Under the pieces are notes generated by a model, which made no database searches, was not told the DNA's origin, and worked only from the letters and a program-made list of their open reading frames with translations. A stretch of DNA of 64,000 nt from Bispira polyomma (taxonomy: Eukaryota), in contig OZ287749.1 of NCBI GenBank assembly GCA_965649765.1, positions 89,652,001 to 89,716,000 of the forward strand. The letters are read 5' to 3'. This document shows positions 4,528-42,959 of the stretch, in pieces. A program made the position numbers and the translations under genes. Numbering within the stretch: the first letter of the stretch is position 1; each line of letters opens with the position of its first letter.

Positions 4528-6410
4528 TGTATAGGTGGGTGTGTTTACTAAGATTTTAGGTGACCAAGTTGTTCTCTTATATATAGGTGGGCGTGTTTAC
4601 TGAGATGTTGGGTGACCAAGTTGTTCTCTATATATAGGTGGGCGTGTTTACTGAGATGTTGGGTGACCCACTTGTTCTCCATATATAGGTGGTGTGTTTA
4701 CTGAGATGTTGGGTGACCTAGTTCTCTATATATAGGTGGGCGTGTTTACTGAGATGTTGGGTGATCAAGTTGTTCTATATATATAGGTGAGTGTGTTTAC
4801 TGAGTTGTTGGGTGACCTACTTGCTTTCGATATATAGGTGAGTGTGTTTACTGAGATGTTGGGTGACCTAGTTCTCTATATATAGGTGGGCGTGTTTACT
4901 GAGATGTTGGGTGATCAAGTTGTTCTATATATATAGGTGAGTGTGTTTACTGAGTTGTTGGGTGACCTACTTGCTTTCGATATATAGGTGAGTGTGTTTA
5001 CTAAGATGTTGAGCGACCTACTTGTTTTCTATATATAGGTGGGTGTGTTTACTGAGATGTTGGGTGACCTACTTGTTTTCTATATATAGGTGGGCGTGTT
5101 TACGGAGATGTTGGGTGACCTACTTGTTCTCTATATGTAGATGGGTGTGTTTACTGAGATGTTGGGTGACCTACTTGTTTTCTATATATAGATGGGTGTG
5201 TTTACTGAGATGTTGGGTGACGTACTTGTTTTCTATATATAGGTGGGTGTGTTTACTGAGATGTTGGGTGACCTACTTGTTCTATATATATAGGATGGTG
5301 TGTTTACTGAGATGTTGGGTGACCTAGTTGTTCTCTATATATAGGTGGGCGTGTTTACTGAGATGTTGGGTGATCAAGTTGTTCTATATATATAGGTGAG
5401 TGTGTTTACTAAGATGTTTGGTGACCTACTTGTTTTCTATATGTAGGTGGGTGTGTTTACTGAGATGTTGGGCGACCAAGTTGTTCTCTATTTATAGGTG
5501 GGTGTGTTTACTGAGATGTTGGGTGACCCGCTTGTTCTATATATAGGCGGGTGTGTTTACTGAGATGTTGGGTGACCTACTTGTTTTCTATATGTATAGG
5601 TGGGTGTGTTTACTAAGATGTTGAGCGACCTACTTGTTTTCTATAAATAGGTGGGTTTGTTTACTGAGTTGTTCGATGACCCACTTGTTCTATATATATA
5701 GGTGGGCGTGTTTATTGAGATAATGGGTGACCTACTTGTTCTGTACATATAGGTGGGTGTGTTTACTGAGTTGTTCGATGACCCACTTGTTCTATATATA
5801 AAGGTTGGTGTGTTTACTGAGTTGTTGGGTGACCTACTTGCTTTCGATATATAGGTGAGTGTGTTTACTAAGATGTTGAGCGACCTACTTGTTTTCTATA
5901 TATAGGTGGGTGTGTTTACTGAGATGTTGGGTGACCAAATTGCTCTCTATATACAAGTGGATGTGTTTACTGAGATGTTGGGTGACCAAGTTGTTCTCTA
6001 TATACAAGTGGGCGTGTTTATTGAGATGTTGGGTGACCTACTTGTTCTGTACATATAGGTGGGTGTCTTTACTGAGTTGTTCGATGACCCACTTGTTCTT
6101 TTTTATAGGTGGGCATGTTTATTGAGATAATGGGTGACATACCTGTTCTGTACATATAGGTGGGTGTGTTTACTGAGTTGTTCGATGACCCACTTGTTCT
6201 ATATATATATAGGTGGACGTGTTTATTGAGATGTTGGGTGACCTACTTGTTCTGTATATATAGGTGGGTGTGTTTACTGAGATGTTGGATGACCTAGATG
6301 TTCTCTATATATACGTAGGTGTGTTTACTGAGATGTTGGGTGACCTACTTGTTCTCTATATAGAGGTGGGTGTGTTTACTGAGATGTTGGGTTACCTACT
6401 TGTTATTGTG
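4528..6410. repeat. 51-bp minisatellite, ~37 copies
   Basis: Unit ATAGGTGGGTGTGTTTACTGAGATGTTGGGTGACCTACTTGTTCTCTATAT; explains the 17-aa-repeat ORFs. Confidence 0.97.
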
Positions 6411-13513: not shown

Positions 13514-14295
13514 GTCATGTATACCACCTATAATTCCCTTGAGCCATGTATACAACTTATAATTCCATTGAGCCATGTATACCACCTATAATTCCCTTGA
13601 GTCATGTATACCACCTATAATTCCCTTGAGTCATGTATACCACCTATAATTCCCTTGAGTCATGTATACCATCTATAATTCCCTTGAGTCATGTATACCA
13701 CCTATAATTCCCTTGAGTCATGTATACCACTTATAATTCCCTTGAGTCATGTATACCACTTGTAATTCCCTTGAATCATGTATACCATCTATAATTCCAT
13801 TGAGCCATGTATACCATCTATAATTCCCTTGAGCCATGTATACAACTTATAATTCCCTTGAATCATGTATACCACCTATAATTTCCTTGAGTCAAATATA
13901 CTACCTATAATTCCCTGGAGTCATGTATACCACCTATAATTCCCTTGAGTCATGTATACCACCTATAATTCCCTAGAGTCATGTAATACCACCTATAATT
14001 CCCTTGAGTCATGTATACCACCTATAATTCCCTAGAGCCATGTAATACTACCTATAATTCCCTTGAGTCATGTATACCACTTATAATTCCCTTGAGTCAT
14101 GTATACCACCTATAATTCCCTTGAGTCAAATATACCACCTATAATTCCCTTGAGTTATGTATACCACCTATAATTCCCTTGAGTCATGTATACCACCTAT
14201 AATTCCCTTGAGTCATGTATACCATCTATAATTCCCTTGAGTCATGTATACCACCTATAATTCCCTAGAGTCATGTAATACCACCTATAATTCTC
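13514..14295. repeat. 29-bp minisatellite, ~27 copies
   Basis: Unit CCCTTGAGTCATGTATACCACCTATAATT. Confidence 0.97.
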
Positions 14296-21139: not shown

Positions 21140-24100
21140 CTGTCAAGTACAGTAAAAATTTGGTAAATGTGAATGTATATGTAAATGTATGTGTAGGTTT
21201 ATAGTCTGATATAACCTTTGTATAAGGCACCTTGTCCGCGAATATAATTTTCAGGCCTGCAGCGAGGATCGAACAGGGGCTCTGAGATCTCCCAGATCCA
21301 AAGTCTGACACTCCAACCGCTAGGCCCCGCCCGCCCCCCCTTCCCCCATTAATTCCCTCCCTGTACACGCCCACATCCATCTCTACCGATCTTGGCTATG
21401 TTTTTGAGGTGGGACTTTCCCTTTTGGTTGATTGATTCCAGTGTTGCACTTTAAAAGATGCATCAGCATCAATAAGGCATATTAAAAAAGCAAAATACAA
21501 TACAAATACAAGAAAAGTATCACAGTCAAGTGGCAAATATAAACCCCGAAATCATATACATCATATATATACATATATCAAGTATGTTACTTACTCTACT
21601 GATTTATCAAGCTCTGTGCTGTTAAATTGCGATACATAGAAGTCATAGTCAAATGCAATTAGCAAAACTTTCACCCCGTCCCTAGTCTCCTCCAGCACAG
21701 TGTTGATTGTATCATTGCTCTGACTGAGGTTAATACTGCCATTAACAGCCTCGTCCTCAGTGAAATCCTTCATAGCATTATCCAGCATTTCGTTGGAGCT
21801 GGTGTACTGTGACGTCAGATTCCACAAGAGGTTGACCTCACTATTTAGTAGGGTCAATGACACACGCACATTTTCTGGGCCGATGGGCATCTGCTCCACA
21901 ATTGTGAGTATCCAATCTAGACTATTTTCTTCTTGACTGTTAACTTGGGGATTCAGGATGATAATAACTTCCCCAAAACAATCAATGTTTGCTGAAAACA
22001 GATAGACATAAAATGTTGCATATACTTAACATGGCAATAAATAGAGAGCAATAATTTTTTTGCTTGGTTTGAGACTTTGAAATACTTTGTAATTGTTATT
22101 ATGTGTGTTTCATCTTTATGTTCATAAAATATATTTGAAACAAACTAAGAGAGTTATTTGATATATCTATATAATATTAAATAGATATACATGGAAAAGT
22201 AAACACATAAAGAACTCTTGAACCATAATACAACGATGATAACTACAGCACAACTATAACAATTTTACACAGCCTTTTAAAGATAAGGTTTACTTGTAAA
22301 GTGCAACTCACTTCCAAATTGCACAGCAAACTCTTCATCATCAGCCTCAATGCAGCTACTGAAGGCAGCAATATCAGACTCTGTTGGTGTAGATCCAGAT
22401 CTTGTTTCGCAGAAGATGCCTCCAATCGACCCGGCTCCACTTATATCGAAGGCAAAGACAGAGTCAAACCGCTCCACCGAGAATGTGTCATTCAGGTCAG
22501 AGTTGACTACACTGGCATTTAGGCGAACTCCATTATCCTTATACCAAGCGATAATGGAAACACGGGTGTAGCTGTCTTCCAGGTTATGCTGGGTATCCGT
22601 GGAGCAGCCTCTTGTTCCCGGAGGTTTTACCTTTGAACATACCACCCCACCTACGGTGCAGTTTTCATGGAATCCATACACATCCAGGGGCTCGATCTCC
22701 TGCAAACTGCTGTTGTACTGAAGCGTGCCCACCTGACTCAGCGCCTGGACCTTCACATCGTTGGTGTACTGGGCAATCTTGACTCGAACATAGCAAGTGG
22801 TGTACTGCTGGGCTCTGATTTCTGGAGCACTGTACCATGACTTGTAGTACTGAGGTTTGCAGGTGTCAGTCAAGGTGTCTCTGAACTGGATCCCCTGGAA
22901 CTCGTAACACTGGTCCTCCTTGTGCAAGTGAAAGCGGAAGTGACGATGGGAGATTGGTGCATCCGTGCAAGTCGGAGAGTATGGCCACTTCCCCTCCCAG
23001 TCATAAAATGGACCCATGGCATCTGGCACTGCGGAAAGGTCATAGTTCACCTGGATTTTATCTTCTAGGGCTTCATACTCAAGGGTATCTACTAAGTAGT
23101 CGAGCCCGGTGTGATTTACTGCAGGCACTAAGTACTTGCCATCCTTTTCTGCCACTAAGAATCCATTAAAATCAAATCGAACGTTGCCGTTACGAGGGCT
23201 GTCACAGCGGTGGATGATGCAATATCCCTCCAAGTCGTTATTGTTGTAGGCAATTCTTGTTGAATAGGAATATGTATGGTCATTCCCGGCGATAAAAGCA
23301 TATAACTTGACTCCTCTGATCTGGTCTCTCTCCAAGAAATCTTCGTTCTCATAAATCCTGACCTTAGAAAGGCAGGTGGTGGTTGAAACGGCATCAAAGT
23401 TGAACCAGGGGGAAGAAGATGATATACCCGCAATATTTACACTATAATATGAGGACTGCCTCTTTTTCCGTTCTGAAGTTATGGCTTTAACTGAGGCTAA
23501 TTCTTCCCACATGCCAGAGAAAGGGTTGAAGACGTATAATTTGATAGCAGAGAGAGGGTTCGTTGCCCCGGGACTGTCCGTCTCATCCACATCCCCAAGT
23601 ACTGCGGCAGGTATATTTAGCTGAACTTCGTTCACTATTTGAAGCGGGGTAGTACCGTCAGCAGCATAAAATGACAGCTGCATCATACCTGGTAAGATGT
23701 GGGAACAGAATATCACAATGTATTCATAAGCAAGTATTTCTATTATCACTGACAGTTGTATTGTACCATTGTATTGTATGATGTATTTTTAACGCGCCTT
23801 GTTGATGCAAAGCATCTACTAAAGCATAACAACAGAATCAGTTAACCGATAGAGAAGTCCAAAAACTTAGCCAAGGTCGTAAGGAAGGATGTGGGGGTGT
23901 ACAGGATACTCTTACACTGGAACTAAACCACCATGTGATGAAAGCCAATTATACTTCAAATGGGGTATGCCAATGGTATGCTTAACTAGTAATATATTTT
24001 GCAAAAACACTCTATAATTGTTTTAAATGTGTTTCAGGTCAAATAACACAGAGGGTGCAGGAAGCATATCCTCAGGCTCATGCACTGGGTCAATTGAGGA

Positions 24101-27100
24101 TAATGTGGAATTTATTCAGTCTCACAATTGCTACCATTTATGACCATTCATTTTGAACTATTACAAAACCTTTACATGCAGATCTGTAGAGAGACGAGTT
24201 CAAACATGCTCACCAACTTCATAAATATGAAGGCCTCAGGTTTGACTGGAGAATCGAGTATTTTTCCAGAATATGGATGCTAACACTGAAATCTAATTTT
24301 AATTCCATGTCTTATTTATTTAGACCGTAAGAAAAACATTAGAACACTGGGTACTAAAGTGCTCAAAATACACTCCAATTGGTTGATACCATCGGTAAAG
24401 GTAAGAACCTTTCGCCAAGGAAAGCTTTAAAAACTCTAGAATAATTAAAACAGTCATATCGTGACCTTGGTATTGCTACGTCACACGAGTTCAAATCAAA
24501 ATTAAAACCTCATTTTTTAAAAACAAATCTCAGGCCGAAGCCTTTTTGTTGTGTCATAACATGGGTTCTAATCCAGCATATATGAAAGCATTATGTATAC
24601 TATTTCCCTTTAAAAAACATATATATTATGTTTAATGATTTATCTTTTATATATAATTTCGTACATAATTCAATGTTCATTATGTAATATATAAAATCTG
24701 GGTATTTTTGAAAATTACCATAGCATGTTGAGCTTTATTGAAAATGTAACTCATACAAAAAAATTCCTTATTTATCTGGTGGTTGACAAAATCAGTGTGG
24801 ACACTTCCCCCTAAAATCCTAGTTCTGCACTATAAAGTTTCAGTGTTTCTTGCCTTTTGTCACATAATGTTCCACAACATGTGGTATCTGTGATCTGTGT
24901 AATGCAAAAAGCCACTTTGTGTGAATGTTGATATGTGGCACATATTACATATATCATAGGATTTCACTGGTTATAGTAGAGAGGATTTTTGTATCTTTCT
25001 TTGTACTCTTAATCTTTAATGAGTCATATAACTCTAGCATAACAGTCCCATATGAGAACAGGAGACTGAAAAGAAAGGGAGTCTGCACTGATATTGTGGT
25101 ATTGATTAATTTTTGTATGTGCTTTGTGTCACGTTTGAGAAAGGTGTACATGAAAAAACTTCATATTCCTGTTTCAATTCTACACAGTGTTAATACTTGC
25201 TGCTGATAAATTGTTAAAATAAAATTTTTAATTAAAAAAAAAATAAACTTCTTTGTTAATAACTTCCTTCTTCATTAGTTGCACTCACTCACCATCAAAT
25301 AAAAACCCTAATAAAAAATAGACTTTGAAGACTTTATAACATAATAGTGCTTTAATAGAGTTTTTCTTTCATAATGTAGTCTATCTGCGATCGTTTTGCG
25401 TGTTTTCTTTACTAAACCCTTAAGAAAACCACTACAGAGATCCAAATTTATGACATCATTGCCCATGTCTGCTGTGAATTCTGAAAAATGGTGGCCCCAT
25501 AGTCGCTTTAATTAATACAAAAAAATTATTGGATTTTGTTTTCATATTCTTGCATTTTTGTCAAATTTTGAAGATGCCTGTAAACTATTAAAGTAGTAAA
25601 TTACCATAATTATGATGGAAAATATACACATTTAGATCAATTGCAACAAAAATTGAACATTGTTTGTGAAATAAATGGGCGTGCTTCACCCATAATGTAT
25701 CACACACACAGTGACCCCTTAACGGTAAAAAAAGTTGATTGTAATCGCCTCTATCTACTTACCATAGGTCCTCAGTTGTTCCTCCTCTCCATCCGAACCA
25801 GATGTGGTGAAATCCCCTGGAGCAGACTCCAGCTGTTTTACGTCTTTTGGATCAATGATAGACACATAAGGGGTGACCAATCCCTTAAAAAAGAAGGTAC
25901 AGATATTATAAACTAACAACAATATCCTTTACCAGTTAGAATTTAAATTTGAATTTAGTTGGGTTTTTATGTGGCTTTTAACAGTTCAGGTCACAATGGC
26001 CAGCTCTAAACCAGTGGAAAAAACCGGTGCTGAATCCATGGTAAACCACTGACTAAATTTCTCACAGGAAGAAATAAACGGTATTGAAACCCACATTGGT
26101 GAAAGGCCAGTGATTAATTGCAAGCGCTAAACACTAGGTCATTGCGGCTCCTTTATTTCTAGTTATTTTGTTTTTAAATTTACATAACATTGTACTTCAC
26201 ATGTGCTAATGCAAAAATTATTTGTGTGTCAATTTAAATTTCTCTTACATGTGAATTAACTGAATGACTTACTATATAAAACAAGGGACAAAAACACATT
26301 TCTCTATAATTACACTGAAAGTCTTTTGTTAAAAGGTGCATTATAAAGCACTTTTAAAGTATTATAGGTACCCATTAGACAATAATTTATCCTTCTGTTT
26401 GCATTTTAAGCTCAGAGCTTCACTAAGTCTAAGCCAGTTTAAATTATATCAGTACTAAGTGATAAATTTTATTAAGCTTTTTGTAATGCCACTATTTAGA
26501 CGAGTGGTACACCACATTAAAGAAACACCACAATCAGTTAGATACTTTACTGAGTGCTGTATAATAACACTATCATCATATATTACTAATTAATTTACAC
26601 TGTATGTAAAAGCGTAAGCGACAGGAAAAACTCCATGCATCACCAAAAGTAGAAGGATTTTTACCTCATACAGGTTACCGGCTTCATCATAGAATGAATC
26701 GGCAGGGACAGCAACATCCACGAGCTTATCATCAGCTTGAGTCTTTATGTTTAAAGTTTGAGCCACTGTGCTGTTTATAACAGGTAGAACCGTTACAGAA
26801 GGAAGTTTGATGCTGACATAGAAGACTCCATCTGCGTCCTCTTCCAAATGCAGCACGGCTGTAGTGTCCGCATAGTCAACATGACTCAGAGGCTTGGCCG
26901 TAATGGCTACAGTCCTAACACCTTCTGGTACGGTGAAGTAAAATTGACCATTGATGGCTGTGCTGGTGACCAATGTTTTGTTATAATAGATCTCCACATC
27001 TTTTAGAGGGGTGTTGTCGGGGCTCCCAAAAACAAACCCCTGGATGTCTATTACTGGATTTGTGCACTCTGAACAGCCACATGCCACGGCCTTTTGGATA

Positions 27101-30100
27101 GTGTAGTTGAAGCCATCGCAAGGGAGGCTTTCTGTCAGGAATATTGTCGCAGCACAGCAAAACATCTGACCGTCCCCACAGCTTTGATTGTTGACACTGT
27201 TGCCACGACAACGGATGCTGTCACACTGACCTACATCGACGACTGTTTTTCCATCGACACTACATCCATTAGGAAGTCTTTGAAACTTACTCTCTGGGCT
27301 GTCAGGGCAAAAGTCGTCTGGATTTTCTACAGGATATAGGTACATTTATATAAATAAAATGCTCTGTATGTAATAAAGATGCAAAATTGTGCATATATCT
27401 CAAAAATATGTTCAAGGTATCAAAACCAGCCTAATATCATTTCTAATGTCAGAACTTCATAAAGTTAGTTTTAATAATCAATGTAATTAATCATATGTCT
27501 ACCAGTTTTAATAGAGACATTTTGCAATGAAGTGATTTTATCTTTTGGCTATTCATATGGTAGCACTCATTTCCCAGAGCAGAGTTTCATTCTAATTATT
27601 CAATATAAAAAGACACAATACTACTGGGGAACTAATTAAACTAGTAAAATGTTGACCCTTTATTCCTGCTCCAATTCAACCAGAACAATATTATCAGAAA
27701 ATGCATGATTTAAAATAAACAATTTGGGTCCAGGCCAAAGGCGAACTGTTGATTATTTTAACATGTCGCCATGACATTGCATGCCCTGTACCTTTAACTG
27801 TGAGTGTAGCATCATTCGAGAAAATGCCCTGGCTGTCGGTGTTGGCACGGCAACGGTAGATACCAGCACTGTCCAGGGTTACTGAGGTCAGGGACAATGT
27901 ACTTCCACTGTCTCTGGTTATCAGAACATTGTTTTTGAACCTGTTAAGTTATCAATAATTTCAATTGAAGAGAAATATAATATCTATATTTTTAACTGCA
28001 ATATATTTTCATTTATTTGGATCACTGTCCACATTTACTGTTATTATTATCATCAAACTGCTAAGTGGTTATTTTTTATTATAAGGTGCTAAGGCTAGTG
28101 TTGAAAAAAATACCACTCCCATTAATTCCTTCATGTGATAAAGTACTTGCCATAGTCCATTGGTGTACAAGGCTTCAGCATTCGTTTCCTCCACCATTTA
28201 ATCTGGCCACGATTGATATTTGTTGATAGCGATGTAAAACCCAACAAAATTTAAAAGGATATTAAATTTTGACTGAGTTTGTGTGTATAATTGTAACTGA
28301 CAAAGCTTTTTTTTTTGTAACTTTGTCAAATATGATTTGAAAGTATTAGAACAATGACTGGTCTAAAAGTGTTTTTGTTCAGAGGGAGGCTAAAATGTAT
28401 TTGTTCAAATAAGTTAAACATTGGGTTCTTAATTGTGTAGTGATTACACACTCTGCAGTTGTGGGTTCAAATCTCGGCCCCTTATGAATTTGGAAAAGTT
28501 GGTAGTACACTTGATGAAGATGGATGGTGTAGACTATATGTATTAATCCAGTTTGATATTAGACCCAAACTGAACTAAATTTAAATTTTAGTTAAATGTC
28601 CCCAAAACCGGTCAATCTTTCTTCTGAATATGATGGGTATGCGTATATGTATTTATCCAGAGCAATGTTAGACCCAAACTGAACTAAATCTTAGCTGAAC
28701 CTCAACAGAATCAATCTTTGTTGTGATTGTGATGTTTTGATTGTAGGTATGCTTCCATTGCTGTATTAAGTGCTTTATAAGTCTGGAATACAAAGTACAA
28801 GACATGGACATCTACTTCTGACTTTAACTGCACCTTGACTCTATATAATTTACTGCATGTGTACCACATAAGACATCAGTATGACTAGGGAGTTGATACA
28901 CACCATTACTTTTTTATGATGACCCCTAATGCTACATTAAGCCAGGTCAACTTTTTGTTGAGTTTAAATTCATCCTATCACTTACCATTCGTAGTATTTT
29001 GGTAAAGGGTTGCCAATGGCAGCACAGCAAAACAACACATCATCCCCAACTATCCTTTTCTTACTGCTGGGGTGTAGGTCCATTGTCAGCAATTCTGTAA
29101 TATTATTTAGTTATATATTTCTTTTATTTCATAATAGTTACATGTATAATTTGCAATATTATAATACAAAGCAAACTGCAAGAAATGCCCATTTGGCATA
29201 TATGTCACATCATATTTTTAGCGTTTTAGGTATAACAAGCATAACAAGGTACATTTTAAAGTCATAGCCCATTCAAAATTAGAGATGATAGTTTTTACTC
29301 GTGATTTCAATGACCTTATTATACATATATACACACAACAAACGAGTATGATGATAAAATGATTATCTGATACATCTATTCATTGAGATATCTATTCCAA
29401 TGCTATCCATCAACAGATTATGTTTGGAAGACATTTATTACAAAAGACAAACCTGTGTGGTTGATTAACCTCCTATATTTTTGTGTAATGTCAATAAATA
29501 TGTTGAAACTGAACAAAGTGTGCTCTCCAAGGACCTTTCGTAACATAAGTAAATACAAACAAATTATGTGGACAGTACAAAAATATGGAATGATACTTCT
29601 GTGGAAAGTTCATCAAAATCTTGACATTCCCCCAAAAATGTTCTAGAACACATTACACAGTTGTTATATTCTATTACAAAGACCGGAAGTACGCTGTGCA
29701 CGAAAATCCAGACAGTGAGCAAGTTCTACCTGTCGATTATCTTGGAGAATGAAGGACAGCCAGATGGCAGAACAAAAACTAGAAAACAAATTACTTCGAG
29801 AATATGTAATCAAATGTAAGGAAATACTATTAAAGATGGTCTTTATAATAGAAATAGAGTTCTCATGATTGTACTGAACCCTGCGTTTGGTTGGGATTTT
29901 ACGTCAACAGCTTAGGTCATATAGCGACAGCCAAAATTAGTGGTGGAGGTAATCAGTGCTAAAGCACTATAAACCACACGTAGGAACTAACAGGATAACG
30001 TTTCCATACACTGGGTGACCACAGCCTCAAATTATTCAACTGGAAGTACTGTTGATCATTTGACAAAACTGTGCAATAACTATTACCAAACTGGTACCCA

Positions 30101-30597
30101 CCTGTTCCTTCTAGCTGGATTACATTTGGCAACCAGTCTGCAGTGTATGTCTGACCTATATAACCAGCCTTCTGAAAGGTAAGTTCGTGGCTGACACAAA
30201 GATTTTCTAAAGAGTAATTCCCGCTTGGTCCCGTGGTGAATAGGATGTGGTAGGGTGTGTCGCTGTTGGCAATCTCTACTCCGCCTAATGCCACACCAGT
30301 GGTGGATTGGACTGCTCCCTCAAACTTCCCATGACATTCACAGTGGGTACAAGAAGCACTCAAGACCCCAGAGGTACAGACTGTTGTACAATCTATGATG
30401 GTTACAAAGAGAAAGAAAAGAGAAAGTAAATTATTATAGTGTCACCTGTAATTACAGTGTTATTTACATAAAATGAAAACATTAAAAAAGGACAGCCAGA
30501 CCAGTAGTTGGGCTCATGAGACACTCTATATATATCAGTTTGACACATAACTGAGTTAACATATATTTACAAACATATATGAAACCTCATTTTAACA

Positions 30598-30637
<40 letters not shown>

Positions 30638-32053
30638 TATATCATGTGCATATCACTAATATATAGTTATCATTACTAATATACTAGCTAACCCTATTTT
30701 TAATTGCAAATGTTTAGTTTCTATGTTTAGTTTCTATGTTTAGTTACATATGTATGGGGTGCATTATGATTTCAATACACTATGTGCTCATATATATATT
30801 TATATATATGTCCTGGTACAAAATCCAGCATTTTAGTACAAAGAGACGAAAAACACAACACAAATACAGAAGATACTCCAATTGGACTCATTACGAACTT
30901 AAACTTTTGAAATATTTTCAAATCCTGCCAAAAAAGAAAGATTGGTACCAATTTGGGAGAAACTTCATTTACAATGATATGTATAGACCAAATTAACATA
31001 TTTTTATTTTTAAAATGATAATTAATAAATGTGAACTTTACATTGTATATTCCAGTTAATATATCATTAAAAAAGAAAAAAACAATTTTAATGATTTTTT
31101 TTTTTAATTATTTCATTGTAATAATATACTATATGGACACCAATTTTATAGCCTAGCCATCGTTTTAATAGTTTTAGAAAGTTTTAGAAGGTTACCCAGG
31201 TCATTTCTTCGAATCTTTTATGTCATGTGTTTAATCTATAGAATTCCGTAAACTTAATGAAGGTTTAAATAAAGCTAGATATTTCAACAACTTTTTAGCA
31301 TCAATCTTTAGTATTTTTTTTTTCATTGGTACGGTTTGACACATTTGTCGAGATTTCATTTTATTTCGTACATACCAAGTTAATTTTTTTATCAGGCTCA
31401 AGGCAATTTTTTATCAGGCATTGTTTTCATTATAAAATTTGGACAGTCACCTTGAAAAAAAGGGTACCGCCATGTTGGAAATAATGTGTAAGGCCAACAT
31501 AGATGGGTTGGAAGTAGGCAAACCCAGTGGCCAAACTCAGGGGTGTCAGATGAATATTTCTCATACTATGCGCCTGTATGTTTTTTCAAAGACAACTCTT
31601 ATTTTTTTTTGTGTGCTAATAAACATTCAGCTTAAGACTTTTAATCAGTGTTTTTCCACTTCTGTTAACAGTAACAATTAAAAATATATAATTTGATGGT
31701 CTAAATTGTATATATATATATATATATTTATGTATAATTTCTAATTAGGGTTAAACATATGCACATGCTCTTTAGTAACCTTTCTCCTTGGCTGAATAAA
31801 GTCTACCATCTGCCCCCCCCCCCCCCCCCCTTCATCCTCTGAATAAATGGCCCATAAATTATTTCACACTGAACTTTACTTTCAAATGTGTATTTCTGTA
31901 ATATAAGTCTGTTTCTGCGTGTGTGTGTGTTTTTTGAGGGGAGGGTCGAATTGGTACCAGAACATTTACTTTTCTATGGTGAATATATAATTGAGTAATC
32001 CATCATTGCGACACTTAAAAGAAGTATTTTTATGTCTGTGTTACCCCCCCCCC

Positions 32054-32086
<33 letters not shown>

Positions 32087-35000
32087 ACCCCGTAAAAGTG
32101 GCAACATATATGAACATTTGAGAGAGAAAAACAAGTAGTATTTTACACCGAAGAACAAAAAACATGTACAAAGGGAAATGTTTTTGTAATTGTACAGGGT
32201 CTTACTTGTTAAATAGATAGATATAATAAACCAAAAGGGTATGTGCAGGATATAGTCATGATCACGACAGTCTCACTGAATTTATGACTTCACTGAATAT
32301 AGTTGGCTTTTTGTTTGGGGTTTTTCCTTCCTTGTACATTTTATTGTTGAATTATTGATGCTGCTGTTTACTTATGAGATACAACCTTTAAATTTTCATG
32401 TAAAGTTGAATCTCTATTATATAAACACGCTGGGAGAAAATATAACGTTAATATACAGTTAAAACTAAAAACAAGAATTGTCTCTTCAAAAAAGACACAG
32501 GCGCGCAGTGTAAAAAAATAACTACCGTTGATATGGGCACTATATATACTGTATATATATACTGGCTGAACCTTATAGCAATCTGACATCTCTCAGTTTA
32601 GATGGGTCTTACATATGATTTTTATAATGGCAGTGGCCCTTCTTAGACTGAAAACTACATCAGGCTGAACCTAATAATAAAATCTTTCTCTTAAGACTGG
32701 CCACCACCTCAGCATTTGATCTCGCCCTGAGAGACGCTCTCACTGATTACAGTATTTGTTACATTCACATTTTGGTGAATGTTATATGATTGTGTTGGAC
32801 GCGTATATAAGGTTTCCGAATTCACAAAAACAACAAACCGTTGCTATAATGTATGTTGTCTATTTCATGAAATATTTAAGTTTCTGTTTTATTTCTGCAC
32901 ATTGTCTTTTTTTAACACAGACTGCACTTGTCACAACTGTTGTCATTCATTCTCGGATTTTGTGTAAAATTCATGTCACAACTTTCACAGTTATTGTCTC
33001 TCCACCTCTCCTACCTACATACTTATCCTTGGCAAAGAAAGGAAAGAGTCTTTTAGTTTTCTCTGTGAAACCTACCGAAACGGCTGCATTTTGAGCCCAT
33101 TTGTTATCGAATAGTCTACCAGTTGAGCTTAGATTACTACAAACACTGTCTTGGTTTAGAAGAAACCCCTGTAGCCTACATCCCGACATCCTCCCTTATT
33201 AACCGGCTATGCTTTTTGTAGTTCTCGATTGGTTCATTTCTTTATCCTACAATTGACTTTATATTAATGCATTTCATCATAATTCTCATAAAAACGAATT
33301 ATATACTTTCTATTTTGCACAACACACACTAAAACGTCAGATATTTACAACTTCTCTATTTGTCAAGAGCTTGGGCCATATCGGCGACCAGAAAGACTAA
33401 ATTCATAAAAATTATAGCTAGCTATTGTTTTTTTTTGTTTTTTTTTTTTTTCTTATAAACAACCAAATTACCCTAAAAACTATTTCAACAAATTGTTTTG
33501 TTTTTTTTTACTTAATTGTGCTTTAAAACCCCATAAAAACTATTTCTCGTTTTCAAAAGCTAATCCGAGCTTCGGCGAAGATCGTAGCAGCACTACTATT
33601 TATAGATCTTTACCTGTACAGATCCAGGTGTAGCGATCGATACCAGGTGTAAGTCCTTACGAGATTTGCGTCATTTTTGGGAGCTCTCGTGCGGTGTTTT
33701 CACCAATTCTAAGCTCCGAGTTTTAGTACTCGCCGACTGCTGAAGCATGTAAACAAACGAACGGGAATAAGCGAAATGGCACGAGAGGGATGGTGTGGTG
33801 AATCGGGGCCAATGAGATTTAGTGGGTGTTTCTGGGTGTGGTAGCCTCATGGCTTCCAGACTGGATCTCTCTCTCTTTCATATTGGGAACAAAGGGTTGT
33901 GGATGGTTTTTTTTTTGTGTGGATTGGAATTTAACATTTTTAATCAAGGTAGGGTTCATACTCATTATGTTTTAACAAGTAGTAACAACATATTTGGTGG
34001 GGATAGGGGGGTTTGGGATGAGTTTCATTATATTTAAATATCATTATACCCAATATTTTTGACCAAATAGTTATCAAGCATGGGGATAAAGTTTGACCTG
34101 GTTTTTGGGAGTTGCTGGTTAGTCTTGATAGGGCCCATATCTTTGTAAACAGTTTCTCCCCTATTTATTTCCATTACTGTAATTTTATAATATCATTCAC
34201 CTCATTCATTTAGTGATACTTGGAGTATACCTTAATACTTTGGTACTCCATCCCTTTTGGTGGGGGTAGGGGTACCCCTCATGGGTAGGTGGTCACATTT
34301 CATCAAATTATCAGCAGTTTTAACCACCATTCTGTTGGGCTACAACAGCCAGGGAATAAGTATATCTAGTCCCAAGGAGGCAGGTGAGGAGCTGGCCAGA
34401 TTCTTGGGGGGACTAACTGGGTTACCCCGTATTTGTTATCCACGACGGCGATGAGGCCATGTATGGTGAATGTACCTATTCAAATGTTGACATTCCAATC
34501 ATCTGGGTCATCTTTCATGTTGGTAGATGGGTTGAACTTTGACCTGACCTTGATCTTTAACCTTGTTTCACCCCTTTGTTTCCCAATCCCGGTATTTGTT
34601 GACCGTACCCATGATGTGGTGGGAAGTTCCAGGAGTTCTGTCTATATATAGACCATCCCAGGACTTCGCCACATGGTACAGGGAAGCAACTATGGGAGGA
34701 CAAATATGATTGAGCACCCCATTAATTAGGTTAGGAAAGGTTTAAGTAAAACGGTAGGTAGGATCGAGTTAGTACATGCAATATGGGAGTTAAAGGGATT
34801 TCTGGTACAGTGGAATTTTTGTTAGAACTTGTATTATAGTATAGAGTCATTTAATTAGGCTTAAAAGAAAGTAAACTTTATAATTGTAGTGGGATTTTTG
34901 GTAGAACTAGAGTTATAATATAGAGACATTTATTTAAACTTAAAAAAACTAAACTCAATAATTGTGTTTAAATGGTAAAATAATAATTCTAAGTTGAAAG

Positions 35001-38000
35001 TAATGTTTCCAGCAGTAATAAATTATAATCACTGTGAAATTTGACCTGAGTAACAAATAATAATATTGTTTCTTTAACCTTCAAATAGTTGTTGATGTAA
35101 ATGCCTAATATTATTGTTTTCTTTAACTTGCAAATAATTGTCGATACAAACGTCCAATATTATTGTTTTCTTTAACTTTACAATTTTTGTTGCTTAGAAA
35201 TAAGTATTCTATATCACCACTTGCTGTGTATATATCCCCCTTTTTGTTCAAATTATGTGATGTAACATTATAATACATCACATAATTTAACTTTATTATT
35301 AAATTCTATACTTTTCTAAATTAAAAAAATATATCAAATCCTAACTTAATTATTTTTAATAACATTATGAAATATCACACTTTACTAAATTTTAAATAAA
35401 TCAAATCCTTAAGAAATTATCTTGAGTTTGAGTACATTATTAAATCCTATATTTTCCAAATTGTAAATAAAATCTTAATTTTGTCATATGTCATATCCTC
35501 AGTAAATGTTCTGTGTTTCCTTGGTTAATTTGTGTTTGTTGTGTCTATTTCTTTCTTTCAATGTCATGTGTGGGTATTAACTTCTATATATTGTTCTAAT
35601 TCTAAAATATAAAACCTAACTGTTTATAATCTCCTTTCTTTTAATATTAATACTAAGTCAGCCAATAATTGGTGTTTGCTATTCTATACATATATGTGTG
35701 GCTTTCCATTTTAATATTGCACCCCACATCTCTTTTGTCCGTTTTAATATTTACATTTGTTGTTGATATATACTTGTTTGAAATGTCATTTATTGTGTTT
35801 CCATTATTGTGTTTTCCACTCTATTAAAATAACTTCGATCAACTCCTGACCTGGGTTTGCCAGTAAAATCAGTAGGATTAAGATTAGAGGATGACCTCGA
35901 CCATGACCTGAAAGGCAAATGACCTTGACCTTGGTTTACAAACCTGCACTCTTTTTGAGTTGGTTGAATTAGTTGTAAGGTAAAATTGCATAGGTGTCCT
36001 AACAAAGAAATCCTTGAACCTAGGCTGCAATATCTCACTTGCTCACGACTCCGACTATACAGTGTGCTCGGTTTACACTACTAGATTGTGAAAACTTAAG
36101 GTTGGACTATCCAGAAAGAATATTACAGTAACAGCTTTTGGTCGGTGGCTGGGTTGGACCACGGGAAATGGGGCAGAGTGAATTGGTTGGTCGGTGGGTA
36201 ATCGGCCAGTGTTGTCCCAGCTAGTGGGTGGTAGGGGAACCCAGAGTACCAAGATGAGTTCTGGTTAGGTGGGATAGTTTCAACTCTTGGTCTATGGTCT
36301 TGTCGACCTAATCGACATGGTGGCAGCAAACGGAAAGTATGAATAACTAGCGTCAGTGGGTGATAGGTTAAATCCTATATAGATAGAAGATAGACAGGCA
36401 GATACATGGTGGAGTAGAAACCATCGGAAGGGGATACGACAAAGAGGTCGGGTCCACAGTTAGCAGCACCCTTCCCGGGCTCTTCTCCTCCGGTGGTGCG
36501 CCACCCTCCCGGGAAGCAGCACTGAGCAGTGGTAGTGCGGGGTTCCGGCCAGGCATCCGGTAGAGTGTGTTGGGTCGGCACCGGCGGTCCCCTTCAGGCC
36601 GTGGCGGGGCCGTTCTCCCTCGAGGGCTCGGGGCAACAAGGGGGGGTTCGATCCCTCCCCCCCGGATGGAGAAGAGCGGACGGCGGACGGGGTAGCGCCC
36701 CGTCCCGCTACACAGGGCTCACAATAATCTGTCTTTTTATAGATCTTTACCTGGACAGATCTAGGGCTCACAGTCCTGTATCAATTTGTCCTTACCTGGA
36801 TATATCCAGGGATCACAGTCCTCTGTCTATTTATAGATCATTACCTTGAGAGATCCAGGGCTTACAGCCTTGTATATATTTGTCCTTACCTGAACTGATC
36901 CAGGGCTCAAAGTCCTGTATATATTTGTCCTTACCTTCACAGATCTAGGTTTCTCAATCCTCTGTCTATTTATAGATCTTTACCTAGAGAGATCCAGGGC
37001 TCACAGTCCTGTATATATTTGTCCTTACCTTCACAGATCCAGAGCTCTCAATCCTCTGTCTATTTATAGATTTTGACCTGGAGAGATCCAAGGCTCACAA
37101 TCCTGTATCTATTTGTCCTTACCTGGACATATCCAGAGCTTACAATCCTCTGTCTATTTTTAAATCTTTACCTGGACAGATCCAGGGCTCACAGTTTCGT
37201 ATATGTTTGTCCTTACCTGGATATATCCAGGGCTCACAGTCCTGTGTCTATTTATAGATCATTACCAGGACAGATCCAGGCTTTAAAGTCCTATATCTAT
37301 TTGTCCTTACCTGGACACGTCTAGGCATCATAGTCCTGTGTCTATTTATAAATCCTTACCTGGACAGGGCCAGGGCTCGCACTCCTGATTCTCTACTTCG
37401 TCCCCCACACATTCCAGATCTAGGTCTCCTTTGTCACACGTCCTACTCCGGGTTTGTGCCCCGCCCCCACAGCTCACTGTGCAGTCATTCCAATCCGACC
37501 ACGGCTGCCATGTACCGGCTGTCACTGCAGAAGTTAGATACATAATATGTGTAATCTGTTTAACAAATATATCTGGATGTAGAGGAACTTAGTGGTGAAG
37601 TGGTAAGGCACTCGTCTCTAACTTCTGCAATCATGGGCTTGAATTTCAGTGATTGCATAGATTTGGTGATAAGAATTAACAGGTTAGATGCTCTAAAGGA
37701 GTATGTATTGTTTTTCTCATGGTGCACGAAATATAGTTGCACAGATCAGTTGTGACAGCTTTTGCTATTTATATTGAGTTCATAGTAGCTTTCAACAACT
37801 ATATGCACTCATATTACAGGTAGCTTATGGAAGGTGAAAGTAAAACATGCTCGTTGGTCAAGATTTCTGTTTTAAAAACCACCGCCCAGCAGCATGTCAA
37901 CCGTCAACTTTGCTAGATACATGCCGGAATAAAGATTCAAACTCACAACTGCAGAGGTGAAAGGCAAGAACATTACCTCTACAGCCCCAAGGTCGCCAGA

Positions 38001-41000
38001 CCGAGGGAACAAGAGTGATTTAGAATTTACTGCACATGGCATGGCCATGTCTTACCGGGGCATATAAATACATTAAATTCTATGATATTATTGTTATTTA
38101 ATGTAAGAGAATATAGTGAATGCACGAATTGAGTTGAATAAGGTTCAAGTATAGAATACTCTTCATTGTACAAGTTCAGCCTTTCAACTCAAAGAGAAAG
38201 ATATCGCCGCTAAAAAGTCATATTACAAGTAAGTGAGGGAAAAATAGTTCATATTTTTGGGGGTTGTCAACTGCTTCATAGGTTCTGGGAGTAATACCGT
38301 CAACTATTTGCCAACAACATATCGATCGAAAGTGCTAAAGTTTAAAGTTTGGTTTACATTTTGTACATGTAGACTATAAAACTTATTATACATTTTTATA
38401 CAGGGTTGCTAAAATGGCAGATACCCCCTCCTTTAATACCCAGGTCTCATTTACATGGAAGGCAATTACGATCGCACCCAGAACACACCATTTCCTATTG
38501 TGAGGAACTGAAGGAAAATAAAATACCATTTTGGGGTGTCAACTACTCGTCAACAGACACTGGTTCTGGGAGTAACAAATGTCGTTGAATGCTAGTCAAC
38601 AAGTTGGGGATCGCAAGGGTTAAGGAGGGCTGTATCTACCATTTTAGTATCCTTGTATAGACAATATGTTTAAAGTAATACTCCTACCAGTAACTGGACA
38701 GGCCTTATGTGTAGGAGAATAGTCGAGAATCAGGTGAATCGGCTCGACTATTAATTTAAAGAAACACCTGATTCGAGGCAATTCTCTGACTTAAACCGCT
38801 GAAAACTAAGGTGACAGTAACAAATTGTATTTTTAAGTATTGTTTAAAGTCATTTCGAATTTCTAAATACATATACACCCATAATAAATATAAATAAAAG
38901 TAAGGCGATACAATTTTATGTTAATATAATTTTATATCATAATTCTAATGAATAAATGTAATATATATTTAAAAGTTACTGAATATGATGTATCAATGTA
39001 AACTTGAACTGAGTAATTTATTGAGCAAGGTCCTTCAATAATGTGGCCCAGAAAGCAGACAGGACATTCTTTAAAACGAAACATCTGTTTTAAACAATAG
39101 GTATCAACCAAACAGGAGTTTAAATATTTAAAGAATATACCCACCAGTAACTGTACAGGCCTGCGTGTTACATCTCTGACTTGAAGTGGCTGAACCCACA
39201 CAATAAGACCCATTACAGTCACGTGACCTCCTCTGTATCCCTCCGCCACAAGCCAGATCACAAGCCCCAAAGTCTCCCCAATCTGACCAAGTGCCGAGTA
39301 CATCTGGAGTTTACGGAACACAAAATTAATCATCTAAATTCTTCTTGTTGGGATTTCAATAAAGCTTTGCACAGGGTTTTTTCCAAAGCTAAAGAGGATA
39401 TAATTTTTACATTGTTTATACTATAGTACAAAAACAAATCTTAATTGATGAAACATGAAAGTTCAACTGATGAACCAGGAGACACAAATGTGGGGATATG
39501 CATCATTGAACAAATGTGTTTTGAATCTGCAGTAGGAGGAAAGCCATAAAGTAGAAGCTGTCCTGTTGAAATGAGGTAATCAATGACATGTAATAAATCG
39601 TGGTAAACTTCTATGATAATGTAGGATAACTGTGATACAAGATCACAAAAATACAACAGATGCTATAAATAAACATAGCCAAATCCTAATAGACAATGAC
39701 CAAATTCTATAAATATGCTCATATTCTAATATGGAAATTGTACTGGCCAAATTCTATAAACATAGCCAAATGCTATAAGACAAATTCTATAAACATAGCC
39801 AAATGCTAAAAGACAAATTCTATAAACATAGCCAAATGCTATAAGACAAATTCTATAAACATAGCCAAATGCTATAAGACAAATTCTAAAAAACATAGCT
39901 AAATGCGATTAACATCAATAAAGAAAGCTAAATTCTATACAGATGGCCAAACAAAGCCAAATTCTAATAGTCAAATTTTAAAAACATAGCCACAATCTAT
40001 CAACATTCGTAAACAGAGCCAAATTCTATATATATATATATCGCTAAATTCTGTAAACTTAGCCATATTGTAATGACCAAATTGTAATAGATAAATTCTA
40101 AAATCTTAGCTAAATTCTATAAGCATAGTCACTAACCTTCCTGTGTAGTAGTAGGTTCGTCAGTACTAATCACAATTTCTGGTGTAGTTGGATCAACCGG
40201 TGTGGTTGGATCAACTGGTGTGGTTGGATCAACTGGTGTGGTTGTTTCATCAACAGTTGTTTCAACACCATTAGTCTCAGTTGCCTCCACAATTGAAGTA
40301 GTTACCATGGTAGGAGTGGTGGATGGTGGTTCGGCTGTCCCCGGTTGTTCTGCTGTGGGTGTAGTGGTTGTTTCAGGTTGCAAAGTGGCTGTTGTCGTCG
40401 CTGCCAAGGTTGTTCGAATAGTTGTTGTGGTTGTTGTTGAAGTTATTGTAGGGACAGTAGTGGGTGCAACTGTAGTGGCAGTGTCTATGGTGGCAAATAA
40501 TACATATGTTACATTGAATATGTGCAGTCAGAGTAAAGCTGAACAGTTATACTTGGATCTGAAATTAATCAATTCATTAAAACAATCCATGAACCTTTTA
40601 ATGTGTATATTGTAACATTAATTTTATGTAAAAATTACCTTTATCCCTTCCACATAAATGAGATGTGTGAAACTGAACAGTTATACTTGTATCTGATATT
40701 AATCAATTTCATTAGAAGAATCCATGTACCATTTTAGTGTTACATTAATTTTATGTGAAAATTATTTTATCCTGTATACATATTCACTGAATTTGGTTTA
40801 TTGAGTTAATGTGTAAAAGAACTACCTGACAATATCAGGGAATGTGTATTCACTGAAATTTTGCAGAAAATATGCATAACCTGTACACACACACACATAT
40901 ATATAATTGGAACATCAATAAGAATTAATAAAATTTGGAACATTAATAAAATAACGGCTTTTAGCAATTTTGAAAACAAATACAATACACAAACAAAAAA

Positions 41001-42043
41001 CATTACACAATTAAAAAATGAACAAGTGCTAAAGCCATTGTAAACCACAAAATAGACCGAATAATCTGTCCCTATTTAGCGAGATTCCTTGCTGTTATTT
41101 TGCCGACAGACTCACGAAAGGGACAGAATGGCTTCCATAAGCAAAACATTGTAAATCAAAATGGGCATATATAGAGATAGAATCTGATAAAAATAAATAC
41201 ATCTCCTCATTCCTTATATATGATATAGTAGCTGATTTTGTGTTATATCATGCCAATATGGTACATGAAATTAATATAAAATAAAAACCAAACCACATAC
41301 ACCGGTTTAACACTGTTGGCCATGTTACACCAGGTGAAACTTACAACGTTTTGCTTATGGAAGCCGTTCTGTCCCTTTTCTGGAGCCCGTCGGCAAAATA
41401 ACATCAAGGAATCTCGCTAAATAGAGACAGATTATTCAGTCTAACCACCAACCTACGGCAAGTTACTCTCCCGCATGACGGACAGAACAGCTTTCGAACC
41501 CACATTGGTTCCAAGAGACCAGTGCTTGTAAAACTAACGTTTATAACCATTAGGCCTCCTTTTACACTGTAGATGATGTAAATTTGCAATTGTACCAACA
41601 TACTATTCATTATTTATATGAAATGTATTTTTACTTTAAATGTTATAATAATTTTAAAATACATGTTCATGTATTCTAGTAGTGAATAAAAGTGTTATTC
41701 GAATATACATGATTCTAATTTATTATACTAATAGCCATACTTCACTAACTAAAGAGAACTAAAAAAAACTAATCACAAGGGTTATCAAATGGTCTGTCCT
41801 TTTACCTGCCCTGGTTGAGAAATACACAGACAGTCCAATAGTAATCCCTGTCAAGGCCACTACAGTTACCACAGCAACCACTAATACCATAGGACTGACG
41901 GCTGCCGCACTTGGGGCTGCTTTGGTTGCAGCGTAGAAATTGTTCGTAGGCCGGGGTTTGTTAAACGAAGAAGGCCGGAACTTCTGTGAATATGGTGTTC
42001 CGCCCTGGTAATACTGGGGCGCACTTCGGTAGAGATCTGCCAT
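20974..42043 (-). CDS. CILP: CILP-family gene (12 coding exons, ~1393 aa): predicted type II membrane protein TM-mucin-TSP1x2-CarboxypepD_reg-like-Ig-CILP core-furin site-VWA-like
   Basis: Exons 41806-42043, 40137-40484, 39145-39303, 37360-37524, 30102-30392, 28986-29094, 27792-27940, 26665-27326, 25763-25883, 22312-23688, 21595-21991, 20974-21139 join in frame via GT-AG introns (sum 4182 nt). CILP-like motifs: HPSSKKRIVGDDVLFCCAAIGNPLPKYYEW, FCPDSPE..RLP, IDPKD..SAPGDF...LRTYGM, SGMWEE, RKKR, WFNFD, CLSKVRIY, GPFY. Confidence 0.85.
21253..21333 (-). pseudogene. tRNA-like sequence (TTG/Gln-like anticodon loop), probably SINE head or tRNA pseudogene, in last intron
   Basis: A-box GGCCTAGCGG, anticodon arm TCAGA-CTTTGGA-TCTGG, B-box GTTCGATCC; acceptor stem does not pair. 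Confidence 0.5.
21595..21991 (-). CDS. CILP: Coding exon 11: degenerate VWA-like domain (N part)
   Basis: TNIDCFGEVIIILNPQVNS...IVEQMPIGPENVRVSLTLL...WNL...TRDGVKVLLIAFD; TTCAG acceptor, GA|GTAAGT donor. Confidence 0.8.
22312..23688 (-). CDS. CILP: Coding exon 10: CILP core, furin site RKKR (23459-23470) and C-terminal region
   Basis: Most of the 490-aa ORF; ACCAG acceptor 23689-90, GAA|GTGAGT donor at 22311. Confidence 0.9.
25763..25883 (-). CDS. CILP: Coding exon 9: CILP core
   Basis: GLVTPYVSIIDPKDVKQLESAPGDFTTSGSDGEEEQLRTY(G); TTAAG acceptor, ATG|GTAAGT donor. Confidence 0.9.
25936..26150 (-). mobile_element. tRNA-derived SINE copy (intron 8)
   Basis: Same family as 15170-15400; CCGCAATGACCTAGTG head, AAATTC-repeat tail. 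Confidence 0.75.
26665..27326 (-). CDS. CILP: Coding exon 8: CILP Cys-rich region + second prealbumin-like domain
   Basis: ENPDDFCPDSPESKFQRLPNGC...FCC...CGCSEC...VPADSFYDEAGNLYE; TGTAG acceptor, GAG|GTAAAA donor. Confidence 0.9.
27792..27940 (-). CDS. CILP: Coding exon 7: Ig domain C-half
   Basis: (W)FKNNVLITRDSGSTLSLTSVTLDSAGIYRCRANTDSQGIFSNDATLTVK; AACAG acceptor, AAG|GTACAG donor. Confidence 0.9.
28986..29094 (-). CDS. CILP: Coding exon 6: Ig domain N-half
   Basis: ELLTMDLHPSSKKRIVGDDVLFCCAAIGNPLPKYYE(W); TACAG acceptor, TG|GTAAGT donor; the CC-x-A-x-G-x-P motif is typical of the CILP Ig domain. Confidence 0.9.
30102..30392 (-). CDS. CILP: Coding exon 5: Cys-rich linker + carboxypeptidase-regulatory-like (prealbumin-fold) domain
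   Basis: DCTTVCTSGVLSASCTHCECHGKFEGAVQSTTGVALGGVEI...TTGPSGNYSLENLC...FQKAGY; CATAG acceptor, CAG|GTGGGT donor. Confidence 0.87.
33629..36712. mobile_element. 3084-bp TG..CA insertion with 7-bp terminal IR and 4-bp TSD (solo-LTR-like, Gypsy-type; or Ginger-like)
   Basis: Starts TGTAGCG (33629), ends CGCTACA (36712); TSD CAGG at 33625-28 and 36713-16; removal restores a minisatellite unit. Confidence 0.85.
36713..37365. repeat. 45/49-bp alternating minisatellite derived from exon 4 3' end + splice donor
   Basis: Units CCTTACCTGGACAGATCCAGGGCTCACAGTCCTG match the exon junction CCTTACCTGGACAGGGCCAGGGCTCGCACTCCTG; one more unit at 33597-33628. Confidence 0.92.
37360..37524 (-). CDS. CILP: Coding exon 4: thrombospondin type-1 repeat 2
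   Basis: [27 protein letters not shown]...CEPWPCP; TGCAG acceptor, CCAG|GTAAGG donor. Confidence 0.92.
38401..38655. mobile_element. Tc1/mariner-type MITE, TA TSD
   Basis: TA|CAGGGTTGCTAAAATGGCAGATAC..CTCCTTTAA vs TTAAGGAG..GTATCTACCATTTTAGTATCCTTG|TA. Confidence 0.7.
39145..39303 (-). CDS. CILP: Coding exon 3: thrombospondin type-1 repeat 1 (not in correct frame in ORF track)
   Basis: Translates DVLGTWSDWGDFGACDLACGGGIQRRSRDCNGSYCVGSATSSQRCNTQACTVT; CCAG acceptor, CTG|GTGGGT donor; phase 1-1. Confidence 0.9.
39660..40130. repeat. Degenerate ~33-bp tandem repeat abutting exon 2 donor
   Basis: Unit AAATTCTATAAACATAGCCAAATGCTATAAGAC. Confidence 0.85.
40137..40484 (-). CDS. CILP: Coding exon 2: Thr/Pro/Glu-rich mucin-like stalk
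   Basis: Acceptor CATAG at 40485-86, donor GAAG|GTTAGT; DTATTVAPTTVPT...(VDPTTP)x3...DEPTTTQE; phase 1-1. Confidence 0.8.
41053..41443. mobile_element. Academ-like MITE (~100-bp TIRs, TAG..CTA termini) inserted in a SINE
   Basis: TAGACCGAATAATCTGTCCCTATTTAGCGAGATTCCTTG... / ...CAAGGAATCTCGCTAAATAGAGACAGATTATTCAGTCTA; flanks ACCACAAAA / ACCACCAAC (7/9 match). Confidence 0.8.
41806..42043 (-). CDS. CILP: Coding exon 1: Tyr-rich cytoplasmic tail + signal-anchor/TM helix
   Basis: MADLYRSAPQYYQGGTPYSQKF...VLVVAVVTVVALTGITIGLSVYFSTRA; ATG at 42043; donor CAG|GTAAAA at 41805; acceptor TTTAG at 42079-80 with an upstream in-exon stop-rich leader. Confidence 0.75.
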
Positions 42044-42055
42044 GTCAATTCAGTG

Positions 42056-42315
42056 CTAATTCTTTATTGGGCAAATACCTAAACATATACAAAGGTCATG
42101 GGTATCATTTTATTATCACTCTAATTCTTTATTGGGCAAATACCTAAACATATACAAAGGTCATGTGTATCATTTTATTATCACTCTAAGCCTTTATTAG
42201 GCAAATACCTAAACATATACAAAGGTCATGTGTATCATTTTATTATCACTCTAATTCTTTATTGGCCAAATACCTAAACATATACAAAGGTCATGGGTAT
42301 CATTTTATTATAATT
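42056..42315. repeat. 65-bp x4 tandem repeat containing the exon 1 splice acceptor
   Basis: Units start at 42056, 42121, 42186, 42251; each has minus-strand GTATATGTTTAG|GTATTTG. Confidence 0.92.
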
Positions 42316-42959
42316 CTATTATGAAGAATGTAGTGTATTCTAATTCCAAATTTAAAATCATAAAAATACAGTTTGTAACACAATTTGTACATTTCTAAGT
42401 GGAAACTTGTTGATATAAATGTATTTAATGTATTAAAATTTCTAAATCAATATCAATTAACAATGTACGTCATGTATATTTTAAGTTAACATTATATATA
42501 TTTCAATTGAAAATAATAATAAAATTGGCAAAATTGTAAACAGCCAAATTTTGTTTTTTATACATAGACCTAGCGTTACTCATTAGTCGGGGTGGTTTTG
42601 TTACTACATAAAAATGCAGCCTTAACTATAAGGACGTATCTTTAATTACTATAAGGATGAATAATTATGGTGTATCATTTATTTGAAATATGTATCTTTT
42701 ACTATAATGATGCATCATTTACTAAAAACATGTGTCCTTTATACTATAATCATATATCGTTATCTGAAAGAAGGTATACCTTACCAAATTGTGTATCCTT
42801 TATTAAAAGTGTATCATTTACTAAACTTCACTGGAAGGATTATACCATACTAAAATGGCGTATCCTTAACTATAATGATGTAACTTTTACTAAAAGGACG
42901 TAACCTTAACTACAAGAATGGATCCTTTATTTGCTACTCTGGCCTTGTCTTTGTATGAT

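Follow-up and report, generated by a model that had tools for sequence, protein, structure and literature searches.

A minisatellite built from the end of an exon and the adjoining splice donor in a CILP-like gene, and its likeness to the mirage arrays of amphioxus

The window, meaning the whole stretch of 64,000 nucleotides that was analysed, contains a CILP-like gene with a complete set of coding exons (Table 1). Its predicted product starts with an N-terminal hydrophobic anchor (maximum hydropathy 2.66, at residue 53), which is followed by a Thr-rich mucin stretch, two TSP1 domains and then the CILP domains. The Pfam families TSP_1, CILP_5th, CILP and CILP_8th score above the cut-off. When the last exon was used to look for homologs, one weak match came back. 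About 290 bp past the stop codon of the gene, an exon encoding a VWA domain is found on the same minus strand (21594-21992).

Behind the fourth coding exon, which encodes the second TSP1 domain, lies a minisatellite whose unit, read on the minus strand, corresponds to the last ~28 nt of the exon (37524-37360) together with its donor. The tandem unit straddles the exon/intron boundary, a boundary that is backed by a spliced contig of a relative, and the first monomer includes the authentic donor. Units of 49 and 45 bp alternate, with a 45-45 doublet at 36934/36889 as the sole break, and TRF reports a period of 94 with 6.9 copies and 79% matches. Both agree with an earlier note on this DNA, which had described the exon end and donor as amplified in 45/49-bp units that form a dimer of ~94 bp. 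The same note had counted about 14 decoy donors within 36713..37365; the total stands, but only 13 lie in that range, and the 14th is found at 33613, beyond an inserted mobile element that the note does not mention. Its statement that most decoys retain AG/GTAA and several CCAG/GTAAGG is borne out by the counts (12/14 and 4/14, respectively), while the GT is present in 14/14 and identity to the true donor over positions -3..+6 in 5/14.

The majority sequence of the decoys is identical to the true exon end at 24/28 positions. Every individual decoy is nearer to that majority (20-27/28) than to the true exon end (18-23/28), by counts alone, and pairwise differences between units amount to 15-20% (80-84% mean identity). 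The inner units evolve in concert and the boundary unit is excluded from this process, as in mirage minisatellites. A genome search with the array, of a kind that passes over common words, identified a single-copy locus. TATAAA, a weak variant of the poly(A) signal, occurs at 37350, 37256, 37068, 36974, 36835, 36741 and 33604, that is, in most units of the 49-bp type, and the first of these overlaps an in-frame stop codon.

Table 1. Positions of the gene, array and element features in the window, and of one further array elsewhere in the genome; a slash within a motif marks the exon/intron boundary.
Feature	Position	Strand	Basis
65-bp x4 array before first coding exon	42056..42318	-	four identical AG sites 42274, 42209, 42144, 42079
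CILP-like gene, 10 coding exons, 1217-aa frame	22277..42043	-	9/9 introns GT-AG, consistent phases, one terminal stop
First TSP1 exon	39145..39303	-	Pfam; run X4 spliced contig
Lone diverged copy of first TSP1 exon end and donor	38666..38705	-	local alignment, 35/40 columns
Exon of second TSP1 domain, fourth among coding exons; repeat unit derives from its end	37360..37524	-	Pfam PF00090, E=7e-12; run X4 spliced contig
True donor CAG/GTAAGGAT, GT at 37359-37358	37352..37362	-	10/11 U1 pairs; 37360 linked to 30392 in X4 contig
Stop TAA in frame at codon 308, before all decoys	37346..37348	-	
Main array, 13 decoy donors	36713..37387	-	unit layout, TRF, donor scoring
Decoys of main array	37310, 37265, 37216, 37171, 37122, 37077, 37028, 36983, 36934, 36889, 36844, 36795, 36750	-	
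Mobile element, 3,084 bp, multicopy, non-coding, within last array unit	33629..36712	.	7-bp inverted ends
Array tail past insertion, 14th decoy CAG/GTAAAG, GT at 33613	33596..33628	-	
Exon downstream of array intron, acceptor 30392	30102..30392	-	Pfam; run X4 spliced contig
Independent donor array behind another TSP1 exon, 20-bp core, 12 AG/GTAA sites	L020 1648-2048 (G000:C14:13.41 Mb)		

The mobile element, in which the longest stop-free frame is 114 aa, is flanked by a target duplication, CCTG, at 36716-36713 and 33628-33625, and the array unit resumes at 33628. Since a unit of the array is split by the insertion, the array presumably predates it. The right end of the element was matched by 40/40 scored candidates. 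The family consists of non-coding elements of 2.8-3.3 kb that have inverted ends of 7 bp and, in most cases, target duplications of 4 bp; the left end of the element has at least 38 nearly full-length matches. Among eight copies elsewhere (L221-L228), a 4-bp duplication is present in six (three of which share flanks) and absent in one, while the remaining copy is ambiguous. These elements appear to resemble Ginger-type DNA transposons. In run X1, a loose contig end at 36966 agrees with the sequence that flanks the 14th decoy on its far side, and may derive from an allele that lacks the insertion.

Two further repeats are associated with exons of the same gene. The lone copy of the first TSP1 exon end sits about 460 bp inside the intron behind that exon. 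The 65-bp array is likely a mirage of the acceptor type, each of its four units carrying the presumed acceptor of the first coding exon. The match to a contig of run X4 ends at 42080, at the last copy of this array, which suggests that a non-coding exon precedes the first coding exon. The designation “exon 4” used earlier for the source exon is thus correct among coding exons, but is likely off by the non-coding one.

Splicing from any of the decoys would end the protein at codon 308, directly after the second TSP1 domain, and leave a TM-mucin-TSP1x2 product of 307 aa. The stop responsible is located at 37348-37346, between the true donor and the first decoy, as previously noted, and 35 nt before the latter. 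By the exon-junction rule, a stop codon upstream of later junctions leads to nonsense-mediated decay (NMD). Because more exon junctions, five in all, follow codon 308, decoy-spliced transcripts would be expected to enter NMD. The earlier proposal that decoy use yields either NMD or a short TM-mucin-TSP1x2 isoform therefore holds as a prediction from the reading frame.

Four runs carry the gene, none of which is on record as RNA; X4 is listed as “DNA?”, yet it is spliced. The X4 contig comes from a relative (organism B) that is about 7% diverged in exons, and it holds 39145-39303, 37360-37519 and 30102-30392 without introns. Position 37360 is joined directly to 30392 at record positions 417/418, and the loose end at 37360 reads into the start of the following exon. 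The contig thus bears out the gene model and, in the relative, the use of the first donor, and it joins the true donor to the acceptor at 30392 that the earlier note had named. The contig does not cover 36705-37359 and hence speaks neither way on the array; assembled contigs also lose rare forms.

The strength of the donors was measured as pairing to the 5' end of the genome's own U1. The true donor makes 10/11 pairs, the most of all sites scored, while in terms of duplex energy five decoys equal it and the others are weaker. The first decoy is identical to the true donor over -3..+6. Concealment of the decoys by RNA structure was considered and is not supported, as predicted structure masks them no more than it masks the true donor. 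With five decoys tying the true donor in energy and structure singling out none of the sites, the first site, if it alone is in use, must be favoured by its position and not by its strength, which is what human F7 shows (PMC1557585). Across 36705-37800, contigs of runs X1-X3, which represent two samples, tile the assembly with zero differing letters, although they may be the assembly's own source and, since contigs shed variants, they are not independent evidence on length polymorphism. In run X3, the contigs are interrupted at 37361-37390, where the exon ends, and the depth table implies a minor extra piece.

By its organization, the array belongs to a known class of repeats that comprises the amphioxus “mirage” minisatellites and the human F7-type donor VNTRs. 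Mirages are described in the amphioxus genes for Adh3, the globins BflGb6 and BflGb9, troponin C and PGBD5 (PMC3087553, PMC3902484), both sources citing the mirage work of Canestro et al. 2002. They are reported to leave splicing undisturbed (PMC3087553; PMC3902484), to have units of 10-160 bp and to include both donor and acceptor types; variation of length among haplotypes or cells is a further trait of the class. Like these, the units of the present array straddle an exon/intron boundary and most keep the splice signal, with GT in 14/14, and both the 45/49-bp unit and the 94-bp dimer are inside the reported range. Unlike the amphioxus mirages, the array resides in a host that is likely a lophotrochozoan, has a two-unit higher-order repeat and is split by a mobile element.

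In human F7, intron 7 carries a 37-bp VNTR whose first unit lies across the junction and whose donor recurs inside the intron; the pseudo-sites are described as functional but unused, and 50 extra clones gave no alternative product (PMC1557585). Other human donor VNTRs listed in that source are those of IFI6 (6-16), CBS intron 13, LMNB2 and PDGF intron 4, and in IFI6 and CBS nearby pseudo-sites are used (PMC1557585). Across the published cases described in these sources, the first donor is used, either by itself or together with one or two adjacent sites (PMC1557585; PMC3087553). The available text of a paper on human repeats that affect splicing (PMC10078293) contains no donor-reiterating case. 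The present array resembles that of F7 in the placement of its first unit at the exon/intron junction, in the copying of the donor into the intron and in the use of the first donor, seen here in the relative's contig. It differs in that 28 nt of the unit derive from the exon, compared with 4 bp in F7, and in that the pseudo-sites of F7 equal the true site, whereas here 5/14 are identical to it over -3..+6.

The array is best explained as an exon-end/donor minisatellite, and probably only the first donor is used, so that the copies are likely neutral. Presumably, a short stretch spanning the exon/intron boundary was duplicated, which placed a copy in the intron and left the exon and the first donor intact. 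A length difference of 4 bp would then have given rise to the 49+45 dimer, which presumably expanded by slippage or unequal exchange, after which the units drifted to their present identity and the mobile element split the last one. Splicing would select the most upstream donor, as suggested by F7 and the one contig of the relative. Transcripts in which a decoy was occasionally used would contain the TAA and be removed by NMD. The array would persist because it costs little.

Such arrays are common in this genome. A search for a triple CAGGTAAG with a spacing of 30-50 nt gave 974 matches, and 22 arrays on C1:1.6-79.5 Mb were counted by hand among the 100 matches listed. The reversed CAGGTAAG gave 263 matches and, among the 100 listed, six arrays, with 0 on C1 or C2. 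A second control word, CTGGAAAG, gave 37 matches and 15 arrays, 0 of them on C1. Both control words share the composition of CAGGTAAG, but CTGGAAAG is an imperfect control: it resembles an acceptor when reverse-complemented and contains AAGGT when reversed, and donors are also present in several of the 15 arrays that it gave.

The flanks of the first 20 of the 22 C1 arrays (L065-L084) were analysed. Upstream on the donor strand, the flank has a higher GC content than the far flank in 16/20, and the sense flank on that side is classed as coding in 11/20, compared with 1/20 in each of three control flanks. The coding score was trained on the matches of a kinase family search, which had been intended as an unbiased sample of exons but gave mostly long matches free of introns; these served otherwise for a single homolog search. 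In 6/20, a Pfam domain extends up to the first donor (Peptidase_C78, Sec63, WD40, Peptidase_C2, Motile_Sperm and bMERB). Kinase frames of 411-419 codons that lack introns and are nearly identical to one another are dispersed in large numbers (L090-L114), possibly borne by a mobile element. The nearest named relatives of one intron-less kinase of this genome are molluscan, with 51-58% identity, which is why the animal is likely a lophotrochozoan.

An unbiased sample of 100 evenly spaced 10-kb stretches (1 Mb) contained 76 arrays with a period of 15-200 and at least four copies. Removal of five arrays of low complexity, 28 belonging to dispersed families and three without flanks left 40, among which eight were judged by eye to span a donor and three an acceptor (L126 1252-1516, L198 756-1084 and L206 8479-8924). 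Five of the eight donor-spanning arrays satisfy a scripted rule, two have a Pfam match and one (L133) is doubtful. The density of donor-spanning arrays is estimated at 5-8 per Mb (Poisson 95% range 1.6-15.8), against a chance expectation of 0.2-0.5 per Mb if 100-300 donors per Mb are assumed. A donor motif was found in 17/71 consensus units, compared with 11.9 +/- 3.0 for shuffled sequences and 9.4 +/- 2.7 for random windows. Coding flanks number 11/80 vs 6/80 at control points and Pfam matches 3/73 vs 2/61; the enrichment in this sample is modest. A preference for donors over acceptors was considered and is not established (11 vs 6 of 80 flanks, p=0.30). The genome as a whole probably holds several thousand such arrays, an estimate that is rough because the blind statistics in the 1-Mb sample are weaker. 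Searches of open-access paper listings turned up no study that counts such arrays across the genome of a lophotrochozoan. At L139 6967, L141 1365, L206 5987 and L126 5166, arrays start within about 45 nt past a donor, mostly without repeating it. In the window itself, long minisatellites of 51 bp and 29 bp (4530-6404 and 13514-14293) have AG-GT words in their units and no clear adjoining exon.

Among 19 other TSP1 exon loci, one has a donor array of its own, which is independent of the present one (L020, Table 1). Seven TSP1 exons on C2, 51-57% identical and paralogue-like, have no donor array. At least seven such exons are clustered at G000:C2:90.35-90.55 Mb (L013-L019), where related genes likely form a family in tandem.

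Of all six-column windows of the present array, the donor core (-2..+4) is kept best, with 2/78 mismatches against 53/338 elsewhere (column permutation p=0.01). When derived alleles are counted once per unit type, the difference becomes 2 in 12 columns vs 37 in 82 (p=0.068). Excess conservation of the donor core is absent class-wide: nine other arrays, chosen without requiring intact donors, have 39/684 mismatches in the core vs 283/4510 elsewhere (0.057 vs 0.063, p=0.73). There is thus a weak hint of constraint on the donor cores of this array, read with the selection bias that the locus was noticed for its intact-looking donors. This local conservation is the best, though weak, evidence that the decoys have a function.

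The foremost alternative is that the decoys nearest to the exon are used at a measurable rate, with unit number or decoy strength setting the share of transcripts that go to NMD or to the 307-aa membrane-anchored mucin-TSP1x2 protein. The identity of the first decoy to the true donor, the position of the stop directly after the second TSP1 domain and the well-kept donor core are all in keeping with this idea, and proximal pseudo-sites are used in IFI6 and CBS (PMC1557585). However, the single spliced contig, that of the relative, takes the first donor, the X1-X3 contigs, perhaps the assembly's own source, contain no length or sequence variant, and no other product appeared among the 50 extra clones of F7 (PMC1557585). 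An early in-frame stop behind a donor is presumably also an ordinary occurrence in AT-rich introns. This alternative is considered unlikely.

Somewhat less likely still is that uncut decoys load U1 in cis, thereby improving exon definition or suppressing cleavage and polyadenylation in the 6,967-nt intron, and are kept by selection. U1 is a suppressor of polyadenylation, and the intron contains eight AATAAA, in addition to TATAAA in six units of the 49-bp type. GT (14/14) and AG/GTAA (12/14) have been retained in spite of the 15-20% difference between units. An engineered U1 bound downstream of a donor is described as raising exon inclusion (PMC4822034), which would favour such a role. On the other hand, the true donor is already strong, the seven paralogue-like exons on C2 do without an array, and the conservation of donors is not class-wide and locally reaches p=0.068 once corrected. 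A trans-acting U1 sink is implausible because the sites at this one locus are few relative to an abundant snRNP. The earlier reading of the array as a U1 sink or splicing dial found no direct support: the first donor is used in the relative's contig and, by itself or beside one or two adjacent sites, in the published cases, a 3-kb element interrupts the array, and the arrangement recurs at many unrelated exons of the genome with no excess core conservation. An origin of the array in faulty assembly, or an accidental likeness to the exon end, is very improbable, for although tandem arrays are prone to mis-assembly, the units differ from one another by 15-20%, three runs from two samples tile the region without differing letters and the 24/28 match to the exon end is in register with the donor.

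Taken broadly, selection on the decoys for an action in cis, whether by U1 loading or by use at a set rate, that tunes the full CILP-like protein against the short membrane-anchored mucin-TSP1x2 form is given little chance. If true, the array would have a function within a class that, in this genome, comprises several thousand minisatellites anchored at splice sites. Taken by itself, the locus matters little and is one more mirage. The estimated abundance of such arrays, however, would offer a natural collection of test cases in this animal for how the spliceosome picks one of several near-identical donors and how introns are gained through tandem duplication, and it raises the question of why duplications begin at splice sites so often.
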